DNA of 10,038 nucleotides. Origin: Candidatus Tenderia sp. GTDB lineage: Bacteria > Pseudomonadota > Gammaproteobacteria > Tenderiales > Tenderiaceae. The position numbers were made by a program, and so were the translations under genes. This document shows, piece after piece, positions 1 to 9,356 of this stretch (positions within the stretch are counted from its first letter, which is position 1; every line of letters begins with the position of its first letter). Below the pieces are notes generated by a model. The model was not told the origin of the DNA. It was given only the letters and a program-made list of their open reading frames with translations, and made no database searches. The stretch lies in the NCBI GenBank assembly GCA_031416075.1, contig JANOSY010000064.1, positions 1 through 10,038 on the forward strand. Direction: 5' to 3'.

Positions 1-137
1 ATGGAACCCAGCGTGCGTATTGCATTATGGCCCGAGCTAATCGTATAGCTCACGTAGAGGCCGGATAGATACACGCAATCTTTACCCTGAGGACAAAAGT
101 TCAATCTTCTCCTTGCAAAACGGGAGGAGTCCATAGA
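1..137 (+). mobile_element. Right end of an IS1111-group (IS110 family) insertion sequence; transposase lies upstream, outside the window
   Basis: GGGAGGAGTCCAT at 122-134 is the reverse complement of ATGGACTCCTCCC, which I recognise as the sub-terminal inverted repeat type of IS1383/ISPa11-like elements. It is followed by 3 nt (AGA) and then TA. An outward-facing -35 box TTGCAA (113-118) sits just inside the repeat, as expected for the circle-junction promoter. The preceding sequence is non-coding and structured. Confidence 0.75.
11..77 (+). ncRNA. Putative donor-binding stem-loop of an IS1111 bridge/seek RNA (3' part only)
   Basis: Nested pairings: TGCGT 14-18 with ACGCA 73-77; GGCC 29-32 with GGCC 59-62; GAGCTA 34-39 with TAGCTC 46-51. 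These enclose an internal loop (19-28 / 63-72). The right loop strand carries ATAGATACA (65-73), identical to the element end junction at 133-141. Confidence 0.6.
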
Positions 138-164
138 TACATGGCTGAAAGTCTGGTGATAGTG

Positions 165-202
165 AAAATAAATGGGGGCGCATGATGCGCCCCCATTTTT
201 TT
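165..202. terminator. Bidirectional intrinsic terminator
   Basis: Perfect 13-bp stem AAATGGGGGCGCA (170-182) / TGCGCCCCCATTT (186-198) with a 3-nt loop, an A-tract on the left and a T-tract on the right. It lies about 20 nt past the stop of the minus-strand 223-501 gene. Confidence 0.85.
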
Positions 203-222: not shown

Positions 223-501
223 TCAATCAAAATCAAACAGCTCGCCAAGAAACCCTTCGCGCTTTTTCTTTTTGCCATAGCCGTACCCGGCATCGTGGTG
301 GCCGTGCGAGCTGTAGGGCTGTGGCCGTGTTTGTGGTGCCTGTTGCGTAGGTTGCACCGCCGTCGGCGTGGCGCGGTCGATGATCTTGTCGAGCTCACCG
401 CGATCGAGCCAGACACCACGGCAGGTGGGACAGTAATCGATCTCGATACCGTTGCGTTCCGACATGACCAGATCAGCTTCGCGACATACGGGGCATTTCA
501 T
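223..501 (-). CDS. zf-TFIIB-like zinc-ribbon domain protein (92 aa)
   Basis: MKCPVC...IEIDYCPTCRGVWLDRGELDKII (two CxxC pairs plus WLDxGEL) and C-terminal KKKKREGFLGELFDF, typical of this family. RBS AGGAG lies upstream of the ATG. Confidence 0.9.
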   Translation of the reverse strand: MKCPVCREADLVMSERNGIEIDYCPTCRGVWLDRGELDKIIDRATPTAVQPTQQAPQTRPQPYSSHGHHDAGYGYGKKKKREGFLGELFDFD

Positions 502-718: not shown

Positions 719-1513
719 TCACCAGAAATACCACAGCACCACCATCCCAAAGACAATGCGGTACCAGGCAAACAGGGTGAAGTTATGGTTGGAGACGTAG
801 GCCAGGAACAGCTTTACGACAATCAATGCGGTGACAAAGGCGGTGATAAAACCGACGGCAAATACCGGGATGTCTCCGGCGTGCAGCAAGTCACGGCTTT
901 TGTAGAGGTCGTAGATGGTGGCCGCAAACATGGTGGGCATGGCGAGGAAGAAGGAGAACTCGGTGGCGGCTGTGCGTGACAGGCCGCAGAGCAGGCCGCC
1001 CATGATGGTGGCGCCGGAGCGTGATACGCCGGGGAACATGGCGAGGGTCTGGGCAAAGCCGACCTTGAGTGCATCGATGGGTTTGATCTCATCAATCGTC
1101 AGGATGCGCGGTGTATGTACCTTGCGTTCGATGACCAGGATCAGCACCCCACCCACGATCAGCGCCATGGCGACGGTGATGGGGTTGAAGAGATAGGTCT
1201 TGATGGCGCTGTGAAATATCAATCCGAGCACCACGGCAGGCATGAAGGCGATGAGGATGTTGATGGCAAAGCGGCGTTCCTGGGGTTGGTTGATGCCGCT
1301 GATCACCTTCCAGAGACGTTTATGGTAGAACCAGGCAACACCAAGCACGGCCCCCAGTTGGATGAAGATCTCGAAGGTATTGGCGCCGTCTCCGGTGAAG
1401 TTCATCAGATCACCAAAGATGATCAGGTGCCCGGTGGAGGAGACTGGCAGAAACTCGGTCAACCCTTCGATAACGCCGAGTAAAAATGCCTTGAGTAATA
1501 ATAGGATATCCAT
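719..1513 (-). CDS. uppP: Undecaprenyl-diphosphate phosphatase (BacA/UppP)
   Basis: Signature motifs GVIEGLTEFLPVSSTGH and PGVSRSGATI, plus AATEFSFFLA; multi-pass hydrophobic protein of 264 aa. Confidence 0.98.
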   Translation of the reverse strand: MDILLLLKAFLLGVIEGLTEFLPVSSTGHLIIFGDLMNFTGDGANTFEIFIQLGAVLGVAWFYHKRLWKVISGINQPQERRFAINILIAFMPAVVLGLIFHSAIKTYLFNPITVAMALIVGGVLILVIERKVHTPRILTIDEIKPIDALKVGFAQTLAMFPGVSRSGATIMGGLLCGLSRTAATEFSFFLAMPTMFAATIYDLYKSRDLLHAGDIPVFAVGFITAFVTALIVVKLFLAYVSNHNFTLFAWYRIVFGMVVLWYFW

Positions 1514-1549
1514 GCAGCTTCAGTCCGGTTGTATTTGCAAAAAGGGGCC

Positions 1550-1578
1550 ATTGTAGCCGCTGGGGCCAAAAAAGGCAT
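1550..1578 (-). promoter_or_regulatory. Possible sigma70 promoter for uppP
   Basis: Minus-strand TACAAT (-10, 1550-1555) with a weak ATGCCT (-35, 1573-1578) at 17-bp spacing. Confidence 0.3.
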
Positions 1579-1623
1579 TGTGTGGAGATGGTGATGGTCT
1601 GGTTTGAGCGGGGGTGACAAAAT

Positions 1624-1652
1624 TTGACACCCCTTGCCCCTTTCTCTAAGCT
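1624..1652 (+). promoter_or_regulatory. Sigma70 promoter of the metZ operon
   Basis: TTGACA (1624-1629), 17 bp, TAAGCT (1647-1652). The predicted start near 1659 is directly 5' of the riboswitch aptamer. Confidence 0.75.
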
Positions 1653-1660
1653 GTGGCCAA

Positions 1661-1715
1661 CAGCGCCGATTTGTACTCAAATTGCGGGCGCGTAAAAAAT
1701 ACCGCTAAAGAGAGG
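1661..1715 (+). ncRNA. SAM-II riboswitch aptamer
   Basis: GCGCC-GATTT-G...TTGC-GGGCGC-...AAAT-ACC-GCTAAA-GAGAGG follows the SAM-II H-type pseudoknot pattern: P1 GCGCC/GGCGC, GATTT pairing with AAAT, TTGC loop, and 3' GCTAAA. It sits upstream of a methionine biosynthesis gene. Confidence 0.88.
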
Positions 1716-1716
1716 C

Positions 1717-1751
1717 AAGCCTGCTTTAGCGAATGCTTGGCGGGTTTTTTT
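1717..1751 (+). terminator. Intrinsic terminator forming the riboswitch expression platform
   Basis: AAGCCTGC (1717-1724) pairs with GCGGGTTT (1740-1747), including G-U pairs, with a T7 tract at 1745-1751, 39 nt before the metZ start. Confidence 0.7.
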
Positions 1752-1790
1752 GTGCCCGCAGAAAGTTAGGGTTTTGAAAGGAGGGGTTTT

Positions 1791-2978
1791 ATGAATGAAT
1801 TTGATGAGTACGGCTTTGACACCCTGGCGGTGCGCGCCGGGCAGCATCGTACGGGTGAGGGTGAGCAGTCGGAGCCGATTTTTCCCACCTCCAGTTACGT
1901 TTTTGGCAGCGCGGCGGAGGCAGCGGCACGTTTTTCCGGCGCTGTCCCCGGTAACATCTATTCACGTTTTACCAACCCTACGGTCCGCACCTTTGAGCAG
2001 CGTCTGGCGGCGCTTGAGGGGGGGGAGTGTTGTGTCGCCACCTCATCGGGTATGTCGGCCATCCTCTCTACTTTTATGGCGCTGCTGAAGGCGGGTGACC
2101 ACATTGTGTCGTCACGTGCCATCTTTGGTACCACCACGGTGCTGTGTACCAATTACATGGCCAAGTTTGGCGTCGAGACGAGCTTTGTTGATCTGGTGAA
2201 TGTGGATGCCTGGCGCGCGGCAATCAAACCCAATACCAAACTGCTGTTTCTGGAGACGCCCTCCAATCCGTTGACCGAGATTGCCGACATTCGCGCCTTG
2301 GCCGATCTCGCCCATCAACACGGTGCGTTGCTGGTGGTGGATAACTGCTTCTGCACCCCGGCGCTGCAACGGCCACTGGAATTGGGTGCCGATATCATCA
2401 TCCACTCCGCGACCAAGTATCTTGATGGTCAGGGGCGCTGTATCGGTGGTGCCGTGGTGGGCCGAGCGGATGTGGTGGGTAAGGATGTGTATGGCTTTTT
2501 GCGTACCGCTGGCCCGACCATGAGTCCCTTCAACGCATGGGTCTTTCTTAAGGGGCTGGAGACGTTGCGTCTGAGGATGGAGGCCCACTGCAAAAATGCC
2601 CAGCAGCTGGCGGAATGGCTGGCGGCGCAGCCGCAGGTGACACGGGTCAACTATCCCGGCCTCAAGTCCCACCCGCAACATGCGCTGGCGGCAAGCCAGC
2701 AAAAGGGGTTTGGCGGCGTGCTCTCGTTTGAGGTGCAGGGTGGCAAGGAGGCGGCGTGGCGGTTGATCGACGCCACACGGCTGATCTCTATCACCGCCAA
2801 TCTGGGGGATACCAAATCGACCATCACCCATCCCGCCACCACCACCCATGGCCGCCTGACACCGGAGCAGCGCACCAATGCCGGTATCAGCGATGGTTTG
2901 ATCCGTATTGCGGTGGGGCTGGAGGATATCGAGGATCTCAAGGGCGACCTAGTGCGCGGCCTCGTAATGGCGGGGTGA
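1791..2978 (+). CDS. metZ: O-succinylhomoserine sulfhydrylase (Cys/Met metabolism PLP enzyme)
   Basis: YSRFTNPTV, SSGMSAI, ETPSNP, DNCFCTP, PLP-lysine motif HSATKYLDGQGR, ITANLGDTKSTITHPATTTHGRL; RBS GGAGG; SAM riboswitch leader. Confidence 0.96.
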   Translation: MNEFDEYGFDTLAVRAGQHRTGEGEQSEPIFPTSSYVFGSAAEAAARFSGAVPGNIYSRFTNPTVRTFEQRLAALEGGECCVATSSGMSAILSTFMALLKAGDHIVSSRAIFGTTTVLCTNYMAKFGVETSFVDLVNVDAWRAAIKPNTKLLFLETPSNPLTEIADIRALADLAHQHGALLVVDNCFCTPALQRPLELGADIIIHSATKYLDGQGRCIGGAVVGRADVVGKDVYGFLRTAGPTMSPFNAWVFLKGLETLRLRMEAHCKNAQQLAEWLAAQPQVTRVNYPGLKSHPQHALAASQQKGFGGVLSFEVQGGKEAAWRLIDATRLISITANLGDTKSTITHPATTTHGRLTPEQRTNAGISDGLIRIAVGLEDIEDLKGDLVRGLVMAG

Positions 2979-2981
2979 TAG

Positions 2982-4388
2982 ATGGCCGCCCACGGCAACC
3001 TCAGAAAAAAAGCCCAGCGTCTGCTTAAAGAGCGGCGCTGGACCACAGCACTGGAGTTATATGGCCAGCTTTGCCAGCTGCAGCCCCAGAATCATGATGC
3101 CTGGCTGGAGCTTGGACTGTTGCAGCAGCGTCTCGATGATCCTGTTCGTGCCGAACATTCGTTACGTCGTGCCCTTGAACTGCGTCCCAACCTGCTGCCT
3201 GCCTACGGGGCATTGGCAACGTTGCTGTTTGGGCGGGGACGGCTGCACGAGGCGGAGACATTCTGCCGTACTGCCCTGGTGCTGGCACCGCAGACGGTAG
3301 GGATGGCGGCTCTGCTGCAGCAGGTGTTGCAGCAGCAGGCGATGGTGACAACCGCGAAGCGCCATGAAGGGCAGCAGCACTACCCGGAGGCGCTGACGGT
3401 GCTGGAAGAGGCGCTGTCATTGAACCCCCTGGCGTATGAGGCGCGCTGGCGTTATGCCGAACTGTTGCTGCTGCTGGGCCGCCTTCAGGAGGGGTGGGCC
3501 GCCTATGAGTGGCGTCTGCAGGACCCGCGCTGGATAGCGGCCATGGGACGCTGTGAATTTGCTGCGCCACGCTGGCAGGGGGAGCCACTCGCCGGAAAAA
3601 CTATCCTTATCTACGCCGAACAGGGGTTTGGCGATACGCTGCAGTTCAGCCGTTATCTGCCACTGCTGCATCAACGCGGTGCCAGGATTATCTTTTATTG
3701 TGATCGGGAACTGTTGCCGCTCTACCAGAACAGGCCGTACCTGATGCGGGTTGAGGCCAAAAGTTATCACAAGGCGCTGACGGAAAGAGTGGATTACCAC
3801 GCCGCACTGATGAGTCTGCCGCACGGGTGTGGCACTACGCTGGAGAATATTCCAACAGCGCCTGCGCCACTCTATATAAGTGATAAACAGAGACACCAGT
3901 GGCAGTCATACATGGCGGGGGATGTTTTTAAGGTTGGGCTGGTCTGGGCCGGACGCCCGGTACACGCCAACAATCAACGTCGCTCCTGTGGTCTGGCTGC
4001 GCTTGCGCCCTTGGCAGAGGTGGAGGGTGTACAGTTTTATAGTTTGCAGAAAGGGGAGGCGGCCCTGGATTCCGTGTCACAACCCGCGGGCATGGTGATT
4101 GATGACCTGGCACCGCAGCTCAACGATTTTTCTGATACCGCGGCGGCCATTGAACAGCTTGATCTCGTCATCGCTGTTGATACCGCCGTTGCCCACCTTG
4201 CCGGTAGCCTCGGCAAACCGGTCTGGACACTCAACTATTTCCCGCCCGAGTGGCGCTGGCTGCTGGGGCGTGATGATTCACCCTGGTATCCCACCATGCG
4301 GCTGTTCCGGCAGTCTGCCACTGATGCCGACTGGTCGCCAGTGGTTGAACGGGTGGCGCAGGCGTTGGCCCATGTCGCAGCGCGGTAA
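2982..4388 (+). CDS. TPR-repeat protein with C-terminal GT-B (GT9-like) glycosyltransferase domain, paralog A
   Basis: N-terminal TPR helices, then GWxxYEWR, EQGFGD, LMSLP, VGLVWAG, YSLQKG, DLVIAVDTAVAHLAG and WRWLLGRDDSPWYPTMRLFRQ. Confidence 0.9.
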   Translation: MAAHGNLRKKAQRLLKERRWTTALELYGQLCQLQPQNHDAWLELGLLQQRLDDPVRAEHSLRRALELRPNLLPAYGALATLLFGRGRLHEAETFCRTALVLAPQTVGMAALLQQVLQQQAMVTTAKRHEGQQHYPEALTVLEEALSLNPLAYEARWRYAELLLLLGRLQEGWAAYEWRLQDPRWIAAMGRCEFAAPRWQGEPLAGKTILIYAEQGFGDTLQFSRYLPLLHQRGARIIFYCDRELLPLYQNRPYLMRVEAKSYHKALTERVDYHAALMSLPHGCGTTLENIPTAPAPLYISDKQRHQWQSYMAGDVFKVGLVWAGRPVHANNQRRSCGLAALAPLAEVEGVQFYSLQKGEAALDSVSQPAGMVIDDLAPQLNDFSDTAAAIEQLDLVIAVDTAVAHLAGSLGKPVWTLNYFPPEWRWLLGRDDSPWYPTMRLFRQSATDADWSPVVERVAQALAHVAAR

Positions 4389-5598
4389 CCTTCTTACTAT
4401 CTACCACGCCGCGCTTCAGGCGGTGCATGGCCGCACAGCTGTCCGTCAGGCATTGCAACGCCATCACATGAGTGGTGGTATCTGTGTCATCGCCATTGGC
4501 AAGGCCGCCAGCGCCATGTTTCTGGGTGCCCACGACGTCTTGAACGGACAGATTGTGGATTCACTGGTGATCACCAAACAGGGGAATGGAGACGCTGAAG
4601 TGACCGCCAAGGGTGCATGTCTGATGGAAGCTGCCCACCCAACACCGGATCAACGCAGTCTTGATGCCGGTCAGACGTTACTCAACTTTATTCACGCCGC
4701 TCCTGCCGATGCGCAGTTGCTATTCCTCATCTCCGGTGGTGCGTCGAGTCTGGTGGAGCTGTTGCCAGCGGGGGCCTCACTCGCCGACCTGCAACGAGTC
4801 AATCAATGGTTGCTTGGCAGTGGTCTCGATATTCATGCCATGAACCAGATTCGCAAATCGCTCTCCCTCATCAAAGGGGGGCGTTTGGCGCGTGAGCTTG
4901 GCGGGCGTAAAACCCTGGCACTGTTGATCTCCGACGTGCCCGGCGACGATCCCGCCACCATCGGTTCCGGCCTGCTGGTAGCTGATCGTTTTATCGAGGC
5001 CCAAGCGGCTGTTGAGTTACCACCATGGATCACCGCACTGATGGCCAGGGGGGTGACGGCACCGGTGTGTAATGACGCCATCTTCAAAAACATCGTGTTT
5101 GATATCATCGCCAACCTTGACGACGCCAAACAGGCCGCCGCCGCATCTGGCCGAAAACTGGGGTATGACGTTTACCAGCACGCGGGCACTCTGGAAGGGG
5201 AGGTGGCGCAGGTGGCCAGGGCGTTGGTGGCAGAGTTATTGAACGCGCCGGTTGGTCTGCATGTATGGGGTGGTGAGACCACCCTGCAACTGCCACCGCA
5301 GCCGGGGCGTGGTGGTCGCAACCAGCACCTTGCCCTTGTCGCTGCTGTTGAATTATGCGGCTGCGACAATCTGCTTTTTCTTGCTGCCGCCAGTGATGGC
5401 AGCGATGGCCCGACCAGTGATGCCGGTGGGCTGGTGGATGGGGCAACGGTAGCGCGTGGTAGTGTTGCCGGGCTTGATGTGAATGAGGCGTTGGCCCGTG
5501 CCGATGCAGGCACCTTTCTGGCGGCCAGCGGCGATCTGGTCAGTACCGGACCGACCGGCACAAATGTGATGGATCTGATGTTGGGGATGAAGTGGTGA
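4372..5598 (+). CDS. Glycerate 2-kinase / TtuD-like protein (DUF4147 + MOFRL domains), about 408 aa
   Basis: IGKAA, HPTPD, LISGGASSL, RKSLSLIKGGRLA, SDVPGDD..IGSG, GGETT, GRGGRNQ, SDGSDG, TGPTGTNVMD. The start is placed at ATG 4372 (17-nt overlap with the upstream gene) because 4099-4371 overlaps the conserved end of paralog A. Confidence 0.92.
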   Translation: MSQRGNLLTIYHAALQAVHGRTAVRQALQRHHMSGGICVIAIGKAASAMFLGAHDVLNGQIVDSLVITKQGNGDAEVTAKGACLMEAAHPTPDQRSLDAGQTLLNFIHAAPADAQLLFLISGGASSLVELLPAGASLADLQRVNQWLLGSGLDIHAMNQIRKSLSLIKGGRLARELGGRKTLALLISDVPGDDPATIGSGLLVADRFIEAQAAVELPPWITALMARGVTAPVCNDAIFKNIVFDIIANLDDAKQAAAASGRKLGYDVYQHAGTLEGEVAQVARALVAELLNAPVGLHVWGGETTLQLPPQPGRGGRNQHLALVAAVELCGCDNLLFLAAASDGSDGPTSDAGGLVDGATVARGSVAGLDVNEALARADAGTFLAASGDLVSTGPTGTNVMDLMLGMKW

Positions 5599-7292
5599 TC
5601 AAAAAACCGAATGCCATCGTCAAGGCCAAGCAGAAGGCGTCGCAGCTATTGCAGGCCAACAGGCTTGAGGATGCCTGGATTGCCTTTGAGCGGGTCAGCC
5701 GCCAGACCCCTGGCGATTATGAAACGTGGCTGAACCTTGGGGCCATCGCCGCGATGCTGGGGTGGTTTGAGCGTGCCGAGACGGCATTGCGGCGCGCGCT
5801 CATGCTCAGGCCCGACCTGTCGCAGGCGAATGTGAACATGGCGCGCCTGTTGATGATGAAAAACCGTCTGGAAGAGGCGCTGCCCTACCTGCGTCACTAT
5901 GTGAAATTGCAGCCCGGCGATCTGGAGGGGTACTACCATCTTGGCCAGCTGCTGGAATCGCTGGGTGATAATGGAGGGGCCGAGCAGGTTTATCGAGAGG
6001 CGCTGTTGCTGGAGCAGAGCGATGCCGCGATTCACATTGGCCTGGGGCGGGTGCTGCGTGCGCGGGGGGCGCATGATGAGGCGCGGGCGCAGTGCGAGCA
6101 GGCCTTTCAGCTGCAACCCAATGCGGCGCTTGCCTACTTTGAACTTGGCAACATCAACAGGGAGCAGCACCGTTTTGACGAGGCGTTGCGCTGCTATCAG
6201 CAGCTGATTGCGCTGGCACCGCAGGAGCGCGAGAACTATCTGCTCAATCTCGCCCTGCTGAATGTCGCTCTGCAACATTACGACGCAGCGCTGGAGCATT
6301 ATCAGCAGCTCTTCTAGTTCAATCCAGACTCTGTCAGCGGCCACTGGAACTACGCGTTGTTGTTGCTGTTGCTGGGGCGTTACAGGGAGGGCTGGAATGA
6401 GTATGAGTGGCGCTGGCGCACCCCCACCTGGACGCGGCAGATGTGGGGTAAATTTTCACAGCCGCTCTGGAATGGTGAGCCGCTGACAGGGTGCACGATC
6501 CTGGTTTATGCCGAGCAGGGGCTGGGTGATGCAATTCAGTTTGGCCGCCTTCTGCAACCGCTGATGCAGCAGGCCGGGCAAGTGATCTTCCACAGCCCGC
6601 CGGAGCTGCTGGGGTTGTTCAAACATATTCCCGGACTCCAGGTGGAGCCGCGCGATTACGAGCGGGCGCGGCAGCACGTCTTCGATTTTCATCTGCCGCT
6701 GATGAGCCTCGCCAGACTCATGGATGTGACCGTGGAAAATATCGTTGCCCCCGGACGCTATCTGCAGCCCGCTCCGGAGCGGGTGGCCGCATGGCGCGAG
6801 CGCATCACCGCCACTGGCTTCCGGGTTGGGCTGGTGTGGGGCGGCTCAACCAATAATCTAGCCAACCGCATCCGTTCGATGAAGCTGTCGGAGTGCGAGC
6901 CGCTGGCAGCCATTCCCGGCGTCACGCTCTACAGCCTGCAAAAGGATGGCGATGCCGAAGAGCTGAAACCTTTTGTTGAACGCTGGGGCATGGTGGACCT
7001 TGCCCCCGAGCTGCGTGACTTCGAGGATACCGCCGCAGCCATCGATAACCTTGATCTTGTCATCAGTGTCGATACCGCTGTGGCCCACATGGCCGGCACT
7101 CTGGAGCGACCGGTCTGGACGCTCGTCTACCAGCCGACGGAGTGGCGCTGGCTGCTGGGGCGCGATGACAGCCCGTGGTATCCGACGATGCGCCTCTTCC
7201 GTCAGACTGTCGAAGCGCCGTGTTGGCAGCCGGTCATCGAACATGTTGCCGTGGCGCTGCGCGAGTTAATCGCAGCAAAGCGCAAGGAGTGA
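5592..7292 (+). pseudogene. TPR/GT9-like glycosyltransferase paralog B, interrupted by a single in-frame TAG at 6315-6317
   Basis: ORFs 5592-6317 (TPR repeats) and 6357-7292 (GT domain) share a frame. Read-through gives HYQQLF*FNPDSVSGHWNYALLLLLLGRYREGWNEYEWR, which aligns with paralog A LEEALSLNPLAYEARWRYAELLLLLGRLQEGWAAYEWR. The start may be GTG 5592 or 5595 (GTGA overlap with the kinase stop). Confidence 0.85.
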
Positions 7293-7295
7293 GCG

Positions 7296-7337
7296 ATGGA
7301 GAGTCTCTTTGATCGTGCCGCAGCGTGTCTGGCCGCC
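7296..7337 (+). pseudogene. Possible 5' remnant of a host gene truncated at the edge of the cassette region
   Basis: RBS AAGGAG and an ATG 3 nt after the previous stop, then 14 GC-rich codons (MESLFDRAAACLAA), then an abrupt switch to AT-rich sequence containing a promoter and a hairpin. Confidence 0.35.
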
Positions 7338-7398
7338 AAACTAAAGGGAACAGCTTCGAGTAATTTCCGTGGACTTATGAGGCATATCCAGTTTGGTT

Positions 7399-7427
7399 TT
7401 GTAATTCATGCTGGGACCGGGTATAAA
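7399..7427 (+). promoter_or_regulatory. Candidate cassette-array promoter (Pc-like)
   Basis: TTGTAA (7399-7404), 17 bp, TATAAA (7422-7427), facing the first cassette. Confidence 0.55.
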
Positions 7428-7445
7428 TTTATAAAAAAGAAAAGC

Positions 7446-7481
7446 CCCCAAAGTGGGGTGTTTGATTGCCCCACTTTGGGG
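7446..7481. repeat. Perfect 13-bp inverted repeat just upstream of the first core site
   Basis: CCCCAAAGTGGGG (7446-7458) / CCCCACTTTGGGG (7469-7481), 10-nt spacer. Confidence 0.85.
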
Positions 7482-7498
7482 TCCATTACCTGTTAGGC
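7478..7498 (+). other. attI-like recombination site (R box GTTAGGC at 7492-7498)
   Basis: The GTTRRRY core is exactly complementary to the R'' box GCCTAAC (8280-8286) that closes cassette 1. No attC-type R''/L'' arm is visible upstream, so it reads as the array head. Confidence 0.55.
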
Positions 7499-7514
7499 GA
7501 TTATGGAGGAGCTT

Positions 7515-8255
7515 ATGACCGAGTACTCCGAGCAGATTCAAAAAACATATCGCGTCATGGAAACCGAGGAATTACTCGGTCGTATTAAAGCAGGAACACT
7601 CACAGAGGAAGCACATGCGCTTGCGCTTGGAGAGATTAAGGCACGTGGCATATCTACCGCTGAGCTGTCAATCAATCCGTCTCCCCCTCTCGCAAATGAC
7701 AAGCATCCTGAACATGAGGCTTTGTGGGAGCTAACCCGTTGTATGAATCAAATTACTACCAATCAGACGCTTGATATTCACGGGACGATAAACAGTTACA
7801 CGAAGACCGGTTGGAAGGTCGGCGGCGCCGTCGCCTTCCTGGGCCTGGGAATTCACCTTTGGGATGGTGGGGGTGTAGCTTTCCCTGTCATGTCGTTTAT
7901 CATTGGTGTGTTGTTACCTGCCAACAAGCATACTTACCTGGACTTTACTGGCCGTCAGATCGTTACCGTAAAGCACTATGCCTGGTTTGAAACATCCAAA
8001 CTCTGCTACCCTTTGACAGACTTTTGCAACATCGTGGTTCGGTATCTCTGTCACACCGATAGCGAAGGGGGGGACATATACACGGGCAGCGTCGGTCTTA
8101 AGCCTGTGGATGGGAGATCTGTGTTATGGGTGAAGGGCTTTCCCACAACCGAAGGTAAAATCCCTCGGACTGCTTACAAGTTTGCGAGGAAGTTGCAAGA
8201 GATGACGGGATTGCCGGGCGCACCCGAGGGCGAATTCAAAAGCGAGACGCAGTGA
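7515..8255 (+). CDS. Cassette 1: hypothetical membrane protein (about 246 aa)
   Basis: RBS GGAGGAG 7505-7511 favours ATG 7515 over 7503. Short helical N-terminal module, two hydrophobic segments (VGGAVAFLGLGIHLW, GVAFPVMSFIIGVLL), and a beta-rich C-terminal part. Confidence 0.8.
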   Translation: MTEYSEQIQKTYRVMETEELLGRIKAGTLTEEAHALALGEIKARGISTAELSINPSPPLANDKHPEHEALWELTRCMNQITTNQTLDIHGTINSYTKTGWKVGGAVAFLGLGIHLWDGGGVAFPVMSFIIGVLLPANKHTYLDFTGRQIVTVKHYAWFETSKLCYPLTDFCNIVVRYLCHTDSEGGDIYTGSVGLKPVDGRSVLWVKGFPTTEGKIPRTAYKFARKLQEMTGLPGAPEGEFKSETQ

Positions 8256-8279
8256 AATTGAGAGTATCACTTTGGACTG

Positions 8280-8401
8280 GCCTAACATATCGTTCAAGAA
8301 GGACACGCCTTGTCGAGGCATTTTAAGAGCATGGGTTTCGTCACGGGTGGCGCTTTGCTCCAGCTTCAGCGTTGGCGTGCCTCTTAACTCCAACGTTATG
8401 T
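8280..8401 (+). other. attC site 1 (122 bp)
   Basis: R'' GCCTAAC, 5 nt, L'' GTTCAAG (8292-8298) ... L' CTTAAC (8383-8388), 6 nt, R' GTTATGT (8395-8401). Internal pairings CACGCC/GGCGTG and GAGCA/TGCTC. Confidence 0.92.
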
Positions 8402-8426
8402 TTTCTAAATCGAAGGAGTAGGGTGG

Positions 8427-8987
8427 GTGTTTAGAGTGTGTATTGTTGTTATTACTATGGCGCTACTGTCTGGGTGCAACAATGGTGGCAGTGATGGCTC
8501 GTCGAACCCGGTCCGGTCTACCTCTGCGACGCTTACCTGTCCCAAACCCCAAGAAGGAATTGTGGGGTGTTGGGTAACGGAAAAATGTGGCCGAATGACC
8601 GGAAACGATGGAAAGACAATTGATTATTGGGGTAGTCATAGAGTGTTGTTCGCTCAAGATGGGAAAATCGAGTTCTTGAGTCAACAATTCAACAACTCCT
8701 CATGTGCTGGGCAACCTAATGGGGCCCCAGTGAACGAAATGGTTGTAGTGTCCTATGTCGAAGCACAACCAGAACAAGATGTAAGTGGTGTCGAGGCAAG
8801 CAAACTAATAGTTACTTCTACGTTTCAAGATAAACAGCCATTTGACACAGGCGTTCTCTACTTTATATCGAATAATTACCGTCTTTGTTTGTCTAGCGCT
8901 TTCAAAATTACGCATGATGCTGTTTCAATGACGGAGTCATCCAGCTCCCCCATCGATTTTGAGTCATGCTTGGTTCGCGTCGATTAA
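8427..8987 (+). CDS. Cassette 2: hypothetical cysteine-rich lipoprotein (186 aa)
   Basis: GTG start after AAGGAG; signal peptide with lipobox LSGC (Cys17); Gly/Ser linker; six further cysteines; stop abuts attC R''. Confidence 0.85.
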   Translation: MFRVCIVVITMALLSGCNNGGSDGSSNPVRSTSATLTCPKPQEGIVGCWVTEKCGRMTGNDGKTIDYWGSHRVLFAQDGKIEFLSQQFNNSSCAGQPNGAPVNEMVVVSYVEAQPEQDVSGVEASKLIVTSTFQDKQPFDTGVLYFISNNYRLCLSSAFKITHDAVSMTESSSSPIDFESCLVRVD

Positions 8988-9062
8988 ACATAACCACAGG
9001 TTCAAGTGGACCGCCATCCGCGGCGCTTCGCTTGCGCACGGCGTCCACTTAATTCGTTAGGG
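8988..9062 (+). other. attC site 2 (75 bp; shortened L'-R' spacer)
   Basis: R'' ACATAAC, 5 nt, L'' GTTCAAG (9000-9006); stem AAGTGGAC/GTCCACTT; L' CTTAAT (9048-9053), only 2 nt, R' GTTAGGG (9056-9062). Confidence 0.85.
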
Positions 9063-9068
9063 GGCTCC

Positions 9069-9356
9069 TTGATCGCCATCCTCACAATTAGCCCAACACT
9101 CATTGCGCTCACGCTAATGTGGGGGTTTGCACTTGCTGGGCGGCCAATTAGCCTTGAACAGATCGGCTGGTTACTGACATATGCACAAATCGTCTTTCTT
9201 GCAGCCGGTGTCGCTGCCACAATGCTTGCAAAACGCTCTGCACAACCAATGGCTGAGTGGCGTATTACTACAAATAAATGGGTAGGGAGAGCAATGGCAT
9301 TGTTTGGTTTGTTCTATGCAATCGCTTTCGCACTGGTTGCATACCATGCCCCCTAA
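9069..9356 (+). CDS. Cassette 3: small hypothetical membrane protein (about 95 aa, about 3 TM segments)
   Basis: The track ORF start at 9006 lies inside attC2, so the likely start is TTG 9069 after AGGGGG (or ATG 9117). The TAA stop lies within R'' CCCTAAC, as is common for cassettes. Confidence 0.7.
   Translation: MIAILTISPTLIALTLMWGFALAGRPISLEQIGWLLTYAQIVFLAAGVAATMLAKRSAQPMAEWRITTNKWVGRAMALFGLFYAIAFALVAYHAP

Follow-up and report, generated by a model that had tools for sequence, protein, structure and literature searches.

RNA-guided recombinases of the IS110 family of insertion sequences (IS), including its IS1111 group, have been characterised since 2024. Within the IS1111 group, ISPa11 of Pseudomonas aeruginosa combines, in the account given in PMC11187229, a DEDD transposase, subterminal repeats, a downstream seekRNA and a repetitive extragenic palindromic (REP) target. 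The part of the same source that deals with ISEc11 of E. coli and Shigella records extensions of 7 bp on the left and 3 bp on the right, an essential downstream non-coding region, circle formation and a seekRNA of 82 nt, in which the top-strand match lies 5' of the bottom-strand match. We analysed a stretch of 10,038 nucleotides from Candidatus Tenderia sp. (assembly GCA_031416075.1, contig JANOSY010000064.1), referred to throughout as the window, and conclude that its first 137 nt are very probably the right end of an active, apparently unnamed IS1111-group element of the IS110 family that carries a bridge RNA/seekRNA. This reading is carried by the anatomy of the element, matches of four guide strands to junctions, covariation of the RNA stems, several site-specific insertions and the conserved halves of a promoter, all of which were observed directly.

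Compared by features, the element resembles ISPa11 in each of those listed above and differs from it in host, here an uncultured gammaproteobacterium, and in the REP family targeted, here one with a GTAG head and the site CACCC-TA-C NN GGCT. With ISEc11 it shares the extensions, the downstream region, the strand order and, presumably, circle formation; the target of ISEc11 is short and linear, whereas here it is a REP hairpin, and the element is known from sequence alone. In the IS110 group, the description of IS621 in PMC11208160 gives it a pair of internal loops, both with two guide strands that are directed to opposite DNA strands and overlap at a 2-nt core, together with a promoter split across the circle junction, and this arrangement recurs at our locus. 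Unlike IS621, whose RNA precedes the gene, in the left end, with reversed strand order, a CT core and repeats of 2-3 bp, the element studied here has its RNA in the right end, a TA core and 13-bp repeats. ISPpu10 (IS110, Pseudomonas putida) likewise inserts into REPs beside a GC-rich stem-loop 5' of the target and, as far as its description in 10.64898/2026.03.19.712850 goes, tolerates natural guide mismatches and tends to insert near a second intact REP; at one of our sites, on contig C17, an intact target lies 35 nt away. It differs in its upstream RNA and CT core.

Ends, copies and transposase of the element

In the 95-contig assembly the window is contig C64, taken from its first base, and its start falls inside the element. 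The first 140-146 nt recur at C65:1-146, at C40:5510-5655 (minus strand) and within a full copy at C75:780-2238 (minus strand), and the element marks the contig ends of C64, C65, C40 and C17; the break at the start of the window is thus explained by the element being a multi-copy repeat. The complete C75 copy (locus L004) served as the source for everything upstream of the window. Boundaries were taken from aligned junctions, left ones from C75 and C17 and right ones from C75, C40, C65 and C64, and place the following features in the window:

1-137, plus strand: right-end part of the IS, its last 137 nt, from recurrence in C65, C40 and C75
122-134, plus strand: right subterminal inverted repeat GGGAGGAGTCCAT, fully complementary to its left counterpart ATGGACTCCTCCC
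135-137, plus strand: right terminal extension AGA, 3 nt, from junction alignment
138-139, plus strand: TA core (crossover dinucleotide), which occurs at each junction and a single time in sites without an insertion
140-146, plus strand: right target half C-AT-GGCT (consensus C NN GGCT), host DNA, from four right flanks and six uninterrupted sites

The left junction reads host ...GCACCC-TA-ATGAA-ATGGACTCCTCCC... in C75 and C17, with the same left end in the related locus L006, and the right junction reads ...GGGAGGAGTCCAT-AGA-TA-C NN GGCT..., running into host DNA. From the left extension, TAATGAA (7 nt counting TA), through the 3-nt right extension, AGA, the whole element measures about 1455 bp in this genome, and the subterminal repeats ATGGACTCCTCCC and GGGAGGAGTCCAT agree at 13 of 13 positions in the window copy. 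No target duplication was found beyond the shared TA, which is single in six uninterrupted sites. Extensions of 7 bp on the left and 3 bp on the right are the IS1111 convention as set out in PMC11187229.

Directly upstream of the RNA region in the C75 copy lies the transposase gene (L004:1092-2147, minus strand; 351 aa, with its ATG at L004:2147), whose product matches DEDD_Tnp_IS110 (PF01548, 1.1e-17) and Transposase_20 (PF02371, 6.4e-22). Its motif GLTPHEHSSG, read by eye in the translation, fits the C-terminal IS1111 pattern GL-P----S(t)G (PMC11187229, section 6). Only about 95 nt upstream of the ATG are non-coding, and the non-coding region 3' of the gene spans about 310 nt (stop at L004:1092 to the right end at L004:783), or about 282 nt in L006. 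The DEDD transposase, 13-bp repeats, 7/3 extensions, 3' non-coding region, motif and site-specific insertion in one orientation are together the traits of the IS1111 group, in which transposases are about 330-350 aa long and repeats usually measure 11-13 bp.

An initial annotation of the window, made from its letters alone, had read the first 141 nt as an IS1111-type guide RNA whose loop spells out the circle junction of its own element, and had staked this on an IS110-family transposase upstream of the window. The gene just described and the evidence given below bear this out, as do the 7-nt left extension, the 3-nt right extension and the TA core seen at the C75 and C17 junctions. The left end, forecast as TAATGCA-ATGGAC, is in fact TAATGAA-ATGGAC, so that 12 of 13 bases were correct, a discrepancy that does not overturn the reading; the single wrong base arose because the RNA itself is mismatched there, its G22 facing an A.

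In the sample of this genome, the 5' part of the non-coding region (L004 ~1012) contains in all copies an insertion of 28 nt, which lengthens the hairpin CCCGCCACGA...TCGTGGGGCGGG and leaves a conserved UUGCG intact; the form of the element that lacks it is 1427 bp long. In run X1 no contig is without this insertion, whereas neither L006 nor the contigs of three other studies have it. As copies at no fewer than four sites all have it, multiplication came after the insertion, and the spread of the 28-nt form argues for an element that is probably still active. In the contigs of three further studies the element is nearly unchanged and again flanked by REPs of the types seen here. The right end was also sought in 61 genomes belonging to the genus, the family and the class of this one. 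It is complete only in this genome and in one other of the genus; a right end at 86% identity occurs in one more, flagged unpublished genome, and nothing rests on that match. A truncated fragment of a related IS110-family transposase (C49:157-514; 86% nucleotide identity over 358 nt) was also noted; having neither ends nor RNA region, it was of no use for covariation, and it adjoins an apparent mobile-element gene on the opposite strand.

Guide strands of the RNA and the junctions they match

The motifs on which the initial annotation was built are all present: window 65-73 is ATAGATACA, the same as 133-141; window 19-28 is ATTGCATTAT; and TTGCAA occupies 113-118. Folded alone, 1-141 gives an internal-loop stem over 11-76 and an apical hairpin over 28-63 (-38.5 kcal/mol). 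In order to assess the structure by comparison, one genome per species was scanned, which gave 15 loci, of which eight with the RNA region and both ends were used (L006, L008, L010, L013, L014, L015, L017 and L018; alignment A1). These relatives, found in Gammaproteobacteria, Alphaproteobacteria and one Zixibacteria genome, have protein identities of 41-100%. Left out were L007, L011 and L016, whose sequence stops short of the RNA or of the right end, L009 and L012, with no right repeat downstream, and L019 and L020, whose 3' region is much longer and organised differently.

RNAalifold returned a two-module structure for the eight-sequence alignment, a target module closed mostly upstream of the window and a donor module within it:

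2-14, plus strand: 3' halves of the target-module stems (UGGA 2-5, CCC 7-9, GCGU 11-14; A1 columns 125-138)
15-18, plus strand: basal stem of the donor loop, 5' half GCGU, pairing with 73-76, from covariation
19-28, plus strand: donor loop 5' strand AUUGCAUUAU, complementary to top strand A-TA-ATGAAAT (core and left end) at 8 of 9 positions
29-62, plus strand: apical hairpin of the donor module, GGCC 29-32 with GGCC 59-62 and inner GAGCU with AGCUC
63-72, plus strand: donor loop 3' strand GGAUAGAUAC, in which 65-71 AUAGAUA equals the right end and core at 133-139 at 7 of 7 positions
73-76, plus strand: basal stem of the donor loop, 3' half ACGC, from covariation and folding

Partner cells of the consensus helices are paired in 93% of cases, against 28-42% when partners are slid, and 15 of 29 pairs have changed on both sides, a number that none of 500 shuffles reached. 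With so small an alignment of related sequences, the shuffle figures make the significance look greater than it is; the control with slid partners is clear as well. Compensatory changes affect all eight pairs of the basal helix of the target module (A1 71-78/130-138), three of the four in its second helix (A1 83-86/125-128) and two of the four in the donor basal helix (A1 139-142/204-207), where 84% of cells are paired, and the apical GGCC/GGCC (155-158/190-193) is invariant or almost so in the eight relatives. Window 11-14 (GCGU) pairs with an ACGC upstream of the window and closes the target module. Thus of the stem-loop first drawn at 11-77 the internal loop stands, and its outer stem at 11-14 has to be given up to the target module, the donor loop being closed by 15-18/73-76. 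An alternative long-range pairing may form between the upstream UUGCG and CGCAA at window 74-78. The RNA is predicted to measure about 90-190 nt, with its start near a conserved CCACGAUUGCG and its end near window 80. Equivalent folds may already be contained in Supplementary Table 5 of Durrant et al. and Supplementary Figs 6-7 of Siddiquee et al.

The donor-binding loop would pair with the joined ends of the element. Its exact guide match is limited to 65-71 (ATAGATA), C72 being the first target base or the edge of the stem and A73 matching a flank base that varies by copy (C, C, A and A in the four copies); the copy of the junction that had been proposed at 65-73 therefore stands for 65-71 and fails for its last two bases. 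The 5' strand does not discriminate across relatives, since left ends are nearly invariant in the family, and its guide role is assigned because of the 8/9 match here and its symmetry with the target loop.

A target-binding loop that matches the flank had been anticipated, and is found just upstream of the window. About 60 nt before window base 1 the non-coding region contains CCGAAGCCGGGUA-[UGGCCAAUAAGGCCG]-ACACCCUAUAUGG, in which the strands AGCCGGGUA and CACCCUA flank a GGCC hairpin; each is complementary to a different strand of the target, and the two share the core. The 5' target strand AGCCGGGTA is the reverse complement of TACCCGGCT, that is of TA-CCCGGCT, the exact right flank of C75, C40, L006 and one X3 contig, and it matches the flank TACATGGCT of the window and the flank of C65 at 7 of 9 positions each. 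The 3' target strand is CACCC-TA, the left target half, so that the overall target is CACCC-TA-CCCGGCT. When the non-coding region of L006 was shuffled (n=2000), two shuffles reached a 10-nt right-flank match and none reached both matches. In both loops the top-strand complement comes first, 5' of the bottom-strand one, an order which Siddiquee et al. (PMC11187229) describe for IS1111-type seekRNAs.

Of the four right junctions in this genome, two read TA-CCCGGCT and one each TA-CAGGGCT and TA-CATGGCT; both left junctions read GCACCC-TA. All junctions fit CACCC-TA-C NN GGCT (these four and two, one pair in L006 and more in the contigs of three studies), except for one X5 right flank, TAC ATT GGCT, which is longer by one base. 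The genome holds six uninterrupted sites of the form CACC[CT]TAC..GGCT and 43 at which CACC[CT]TA stands directly 3' of a perfect hairpin of at least 6 bp, with several recurring stem types, among them GTGCAT-GGA-ATGCAC, GTGGGCAC...GTGCCCAC and GTGCGC-ACA-GCGCAC. On the opposite strand each of these sites reads as a GTAG head with a palindrome behind it, the arrangement described for REP sequences. The element thus appears to insert into REP-like hairpins, at the TA of their GTAG head. This assignment rests on the hairpin-associated sites and not on word counts, the 8-mer CACCCTAC being no more frequent than base composition predicts (112 observed, 118 expected).

At C17:199227-199262, 35 nt upstream of the IS-occupied REP, there is another target-like REP without an insertion (GTGCATGGAATGCACC-TTAC-TTGGCT), and such clustering of REPs on C17 resembles reported ISPpu10/ISPpu9 insertions near a second REP. 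Matches to PF01797 (Y1 transposase) occur at eight places in the genome, for example C45:107540-107896; some of these genes may be REP-associated tyrosine transposases tied to the targeted REP family, and others may belong to IS200/IS605.

Each guide strand, its position fixed by alignment A1, was then compared with the junctions of its own element and with those of the other elements among the eight relatives. This comparison replaced a search for the longest exact match over the whole non-coding region, which proved noisy owing to chance 7-mers. Mean matches were:

3' donor strand, 7 positions: 6.88 with own junctions and 5.29 with those of others
3' target strand, 7 positions: 6.25 with own junctions and 2.75 with those of others
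5' target strand, 9 positions: 6.88 with own junctions and 3.48 with those of others
5' donor strand, 9 positions: 6.25 with own junctions and 5.88 with those of others

Three of the four guide strands follow their own junctions. The 3' donor heptamer equals its own right end plus core in seven of the eight relatives, through six different heptamers. Two close Shewanella relatives, L013 and L018, have different 5' target strands (A1 columns 87-97; ACAGATACTTA and ACTGCCGCAAG), each 8/9 to its own right flank, and so appear to represent a natural reprogramming of the target loop. Their junction dinucleotides also differ, with TA on the left and TG or AG on the right. In L013 (Shewanella canadensis, 2760-2800) the right end stands in tandem, GGGATGGGTCCATATAA occurring twice 20 nt apart, and the first copy may be the leftover of an earlier insertion or of aberrant recombination.

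Putative junction promoter, proposed mechanism and alternative explanations

The initial annotation had also proposed a promoter that would be completed only in the circle, and the pattern proves to be conserved in silico in seven of the eight relatives. Its window half is the following:

113-118, plus strand: -35 hexamer TTGCAA of the predicted circle-only promoter, TTGCAA in seven of eight relatives and TTGCTT in the eighth

After TTGCAA come 17 nt and then G136 A137 T138 A139, which when joined in silico to the left end become GATAAT. In seven of the eight relatives the joint is spanned by a hexamer, 16-17 nt farther downstream, that agrees with TATAAT at 4-6 of 6 positions, against 2-4 of 6 at the same positions in the integrated form. 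The junction of ISEc11 reportedly forms a promoter too, according to work of Prosseda et al. from 2006. For the family at large, junction promoters are described in passages of PMC11208160 and 10.64898/2026.03.19.712850. Contigs of four runs (X1, X3, X4 and X5) searched against L004:640-2400 yielded no right-to-left joint; contigs drop rare forms, which makes this result neutral. The single joint listed, 1211->1297 (one contig, depth 2.8, side 26), was taken as noise or as another organism.

By homology to the described systems, RNA expression and processing, circle formation and catalysis can be sketched as follows. The 22 sequencing runs covered, all of them DNA by their records or by presumption, included no RNA run. 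The non-coding region 3' of the DEDD gene would give rise to a bridge RNA/seekRNA with two internal loops, of which the upstream loop would read the target and the window loop (19-28, 63-72), with the same geometry, the joined ends of the element. In the latter, AUUGCAUUAU would be set against top strand TA-ATGAAAT of the left end and AUAGAUA against the bottom strand of ATAGA-TA of the right end. Excision as a circle would join ...CCATAGA-TA-ATGAAATGG... and thereby complete the promoter of TTGCAA, 17 nt and GATAAT, facing the transposase gene. The RNA-loaded transposase would then exchange strands at the TA of the GTAG head in REP-like hairpins.

In all five distinct lineages examined (L006/L008, L010, L014, L015, L018) the 3' donor strand runs one base into the host flank. 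One could speculate that the donor loop is tuned asymmetrically, its 3' strand being perfect and fitting also the integrated right junction, the substrate of excision, and its 5' strand keeping a conserved mismatch, and that together with the REP hairpin this sets the balance of excision and insertion as well as target fidelity. We give this proposal little credence at present.

A number of results weigh against a guide RNA in an active element. The fold of 1-141 barely beats its shuffles (z -1.87, with 10 of 200 as good) and that of a 193-nt RNA does little better than its own (z -1.17). A scan of L004 with Rfam 15 (E<=1) returned nothing in the element, although that release perhaps holds no bridge-RNA model. 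In the flank of the window itself, no more than 7 of 9 positions agree with the 5' target guide, and in L008 and L010 the 5' target strand matches the single observed right flank at 5/9 and 6/9, with shuffle tests that are not significant (both matches in 177/2000 and 702/2000, respectively). G22 of the 5' donor strand makes a G.A mismatch with the donor, and the own and cross scores of this strand in the wider family show no separation. The right repeat of the C75 copy is GGGAGGAGCCCAT, with T to C at the equivalent of window 130, a change seen in C75 only. Prediction of sigma-70-like promoters across the integrated element found none.

The weak z-scores would suit a hairpin at 11-77 that is a structural or terminator-like part of the transposase 3' untranslated region, the identities with the element ends being due to chance or to AT-rich ends. 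One 9-mer repeat within 141 nt is, at a chance of about 0.04 by our own estimate, only mildly unlikely by itself, and 7-mer matches are common across the 255-nt region, off-diagonal values of 5-7 being frequent. The real support for guide function comes, though, from all four guide strands matching junctions that lie outside the window, and not from fold energy. In two loops of the same geometry, four strands each match a different junction half, the 3' donor heptamer and the right end vary in step in seven of the eight relatives, the stems covary and no T-run follows the hairpin in the window, and we hold this explanation to be highly improbable. Less far-fetched, and yet unlikely, is that only half of the donor loop guides, 65-71 reading the right end while the protein reads the subterminal repeat and 19-28 does not pair with the left end, whose sequence would have been predicted correctly simply because left ends are conserved. 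The lack of separation just mentioned, the mismatch here, the 2-4 mismatches in most relatives and the near-invariance of the left ends (TAATG..ATGG in six of eight) all speak for it. The 5' donor strand is nevertheless 8/9 complementary both here and in L008, a relative of 79% identity with the same G.A mismatch, it mirrors the geometry of the target loop, where the equivalent strand does guide, and a natural donor-guide mismatch, G.G, is reported for ISPpu10 (10.64898/2026.03.19.712850, section 6).

It is also rather improbable that the copies in this genome are relics, inactivated in their RNA or ends by the 28-nt insertion and the mutated C75 repeat. The insertion is missing from L006 and from the contigs of the three other studies, and the C75 repeat does have its mismatch; but the insertion is common to copies at four or more different sites and so predates their spread, it only lengthens a hairpin, and the three other right ends have a perfect repeat. 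Depths of the X1 contigs, 29 for the C75-type repeat variant and 70 for the other form, fit a single variant copy among several. We thus retain the reading of window 1-137 as the right end of an active IS1111-group element with a two-loop guide RNA.

Neighbouring genes and significance of the element

Beyond the insertion site, a perfect GC-rich hairpin at window 166-200 (GGGGGCGCATGATGCGCCCCC), with an A-run on one side and a T-run on the other, resembles a bidirectional terminator; it lies between the site and a convergent zinc-ribbon gene (223-501, minus strand; PF13453). The other genes of the window assigned to families are:

719-1513, minus strand: BacA/UppP
1791-2978: Cys/Met-metabolism PLP enzyme
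2982-4388 and 5592-6317: TPR proteins
within 4099-5598: DUF4147 and MOFRL protein
6357-7292: family-9 glycosyltransferase-like protein

Pfam returned no match for the frames 7503-8255, 8427-8987 and 9006-9356, and the genes over 719-8987 are ordinary chromosomal ones. In L004 the sole Rfam match lies outside the element, a group II intron domain (RF00029) at 65-136 on the plus strand (45.2 bits, gathering threshold 40; E 4.4e-07), which in C75 stands just before a 196-aa frame (158-748, no family assigned), about 640 nt from the right end of the IS.

The suggestion in the initial annotation that this might be an uncharacterised system does not hold, as the anatomy is that published for the IS1111-group bridge RNA/seekRNA (Durrant et al., 2024; Siddiquee et al., 2024), and the value of the element as a discovery is accordingly small. 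Were the asymmetric tuning of the donor loop true, it would extend to the IS1111 group the reports on handshake guides and directionality in IS621 and on the stem-loop gate of ISPpu10. The practical value lies in a decoded natural example, with four guide strands, core, both ends, target and junction promoter, from an uncultured sediment gammaproteobacterium, with a TA core and a REP-head target. Its relatives across phyla point to a target loop that has been reprogrammed naturally on a conserved scaffold.

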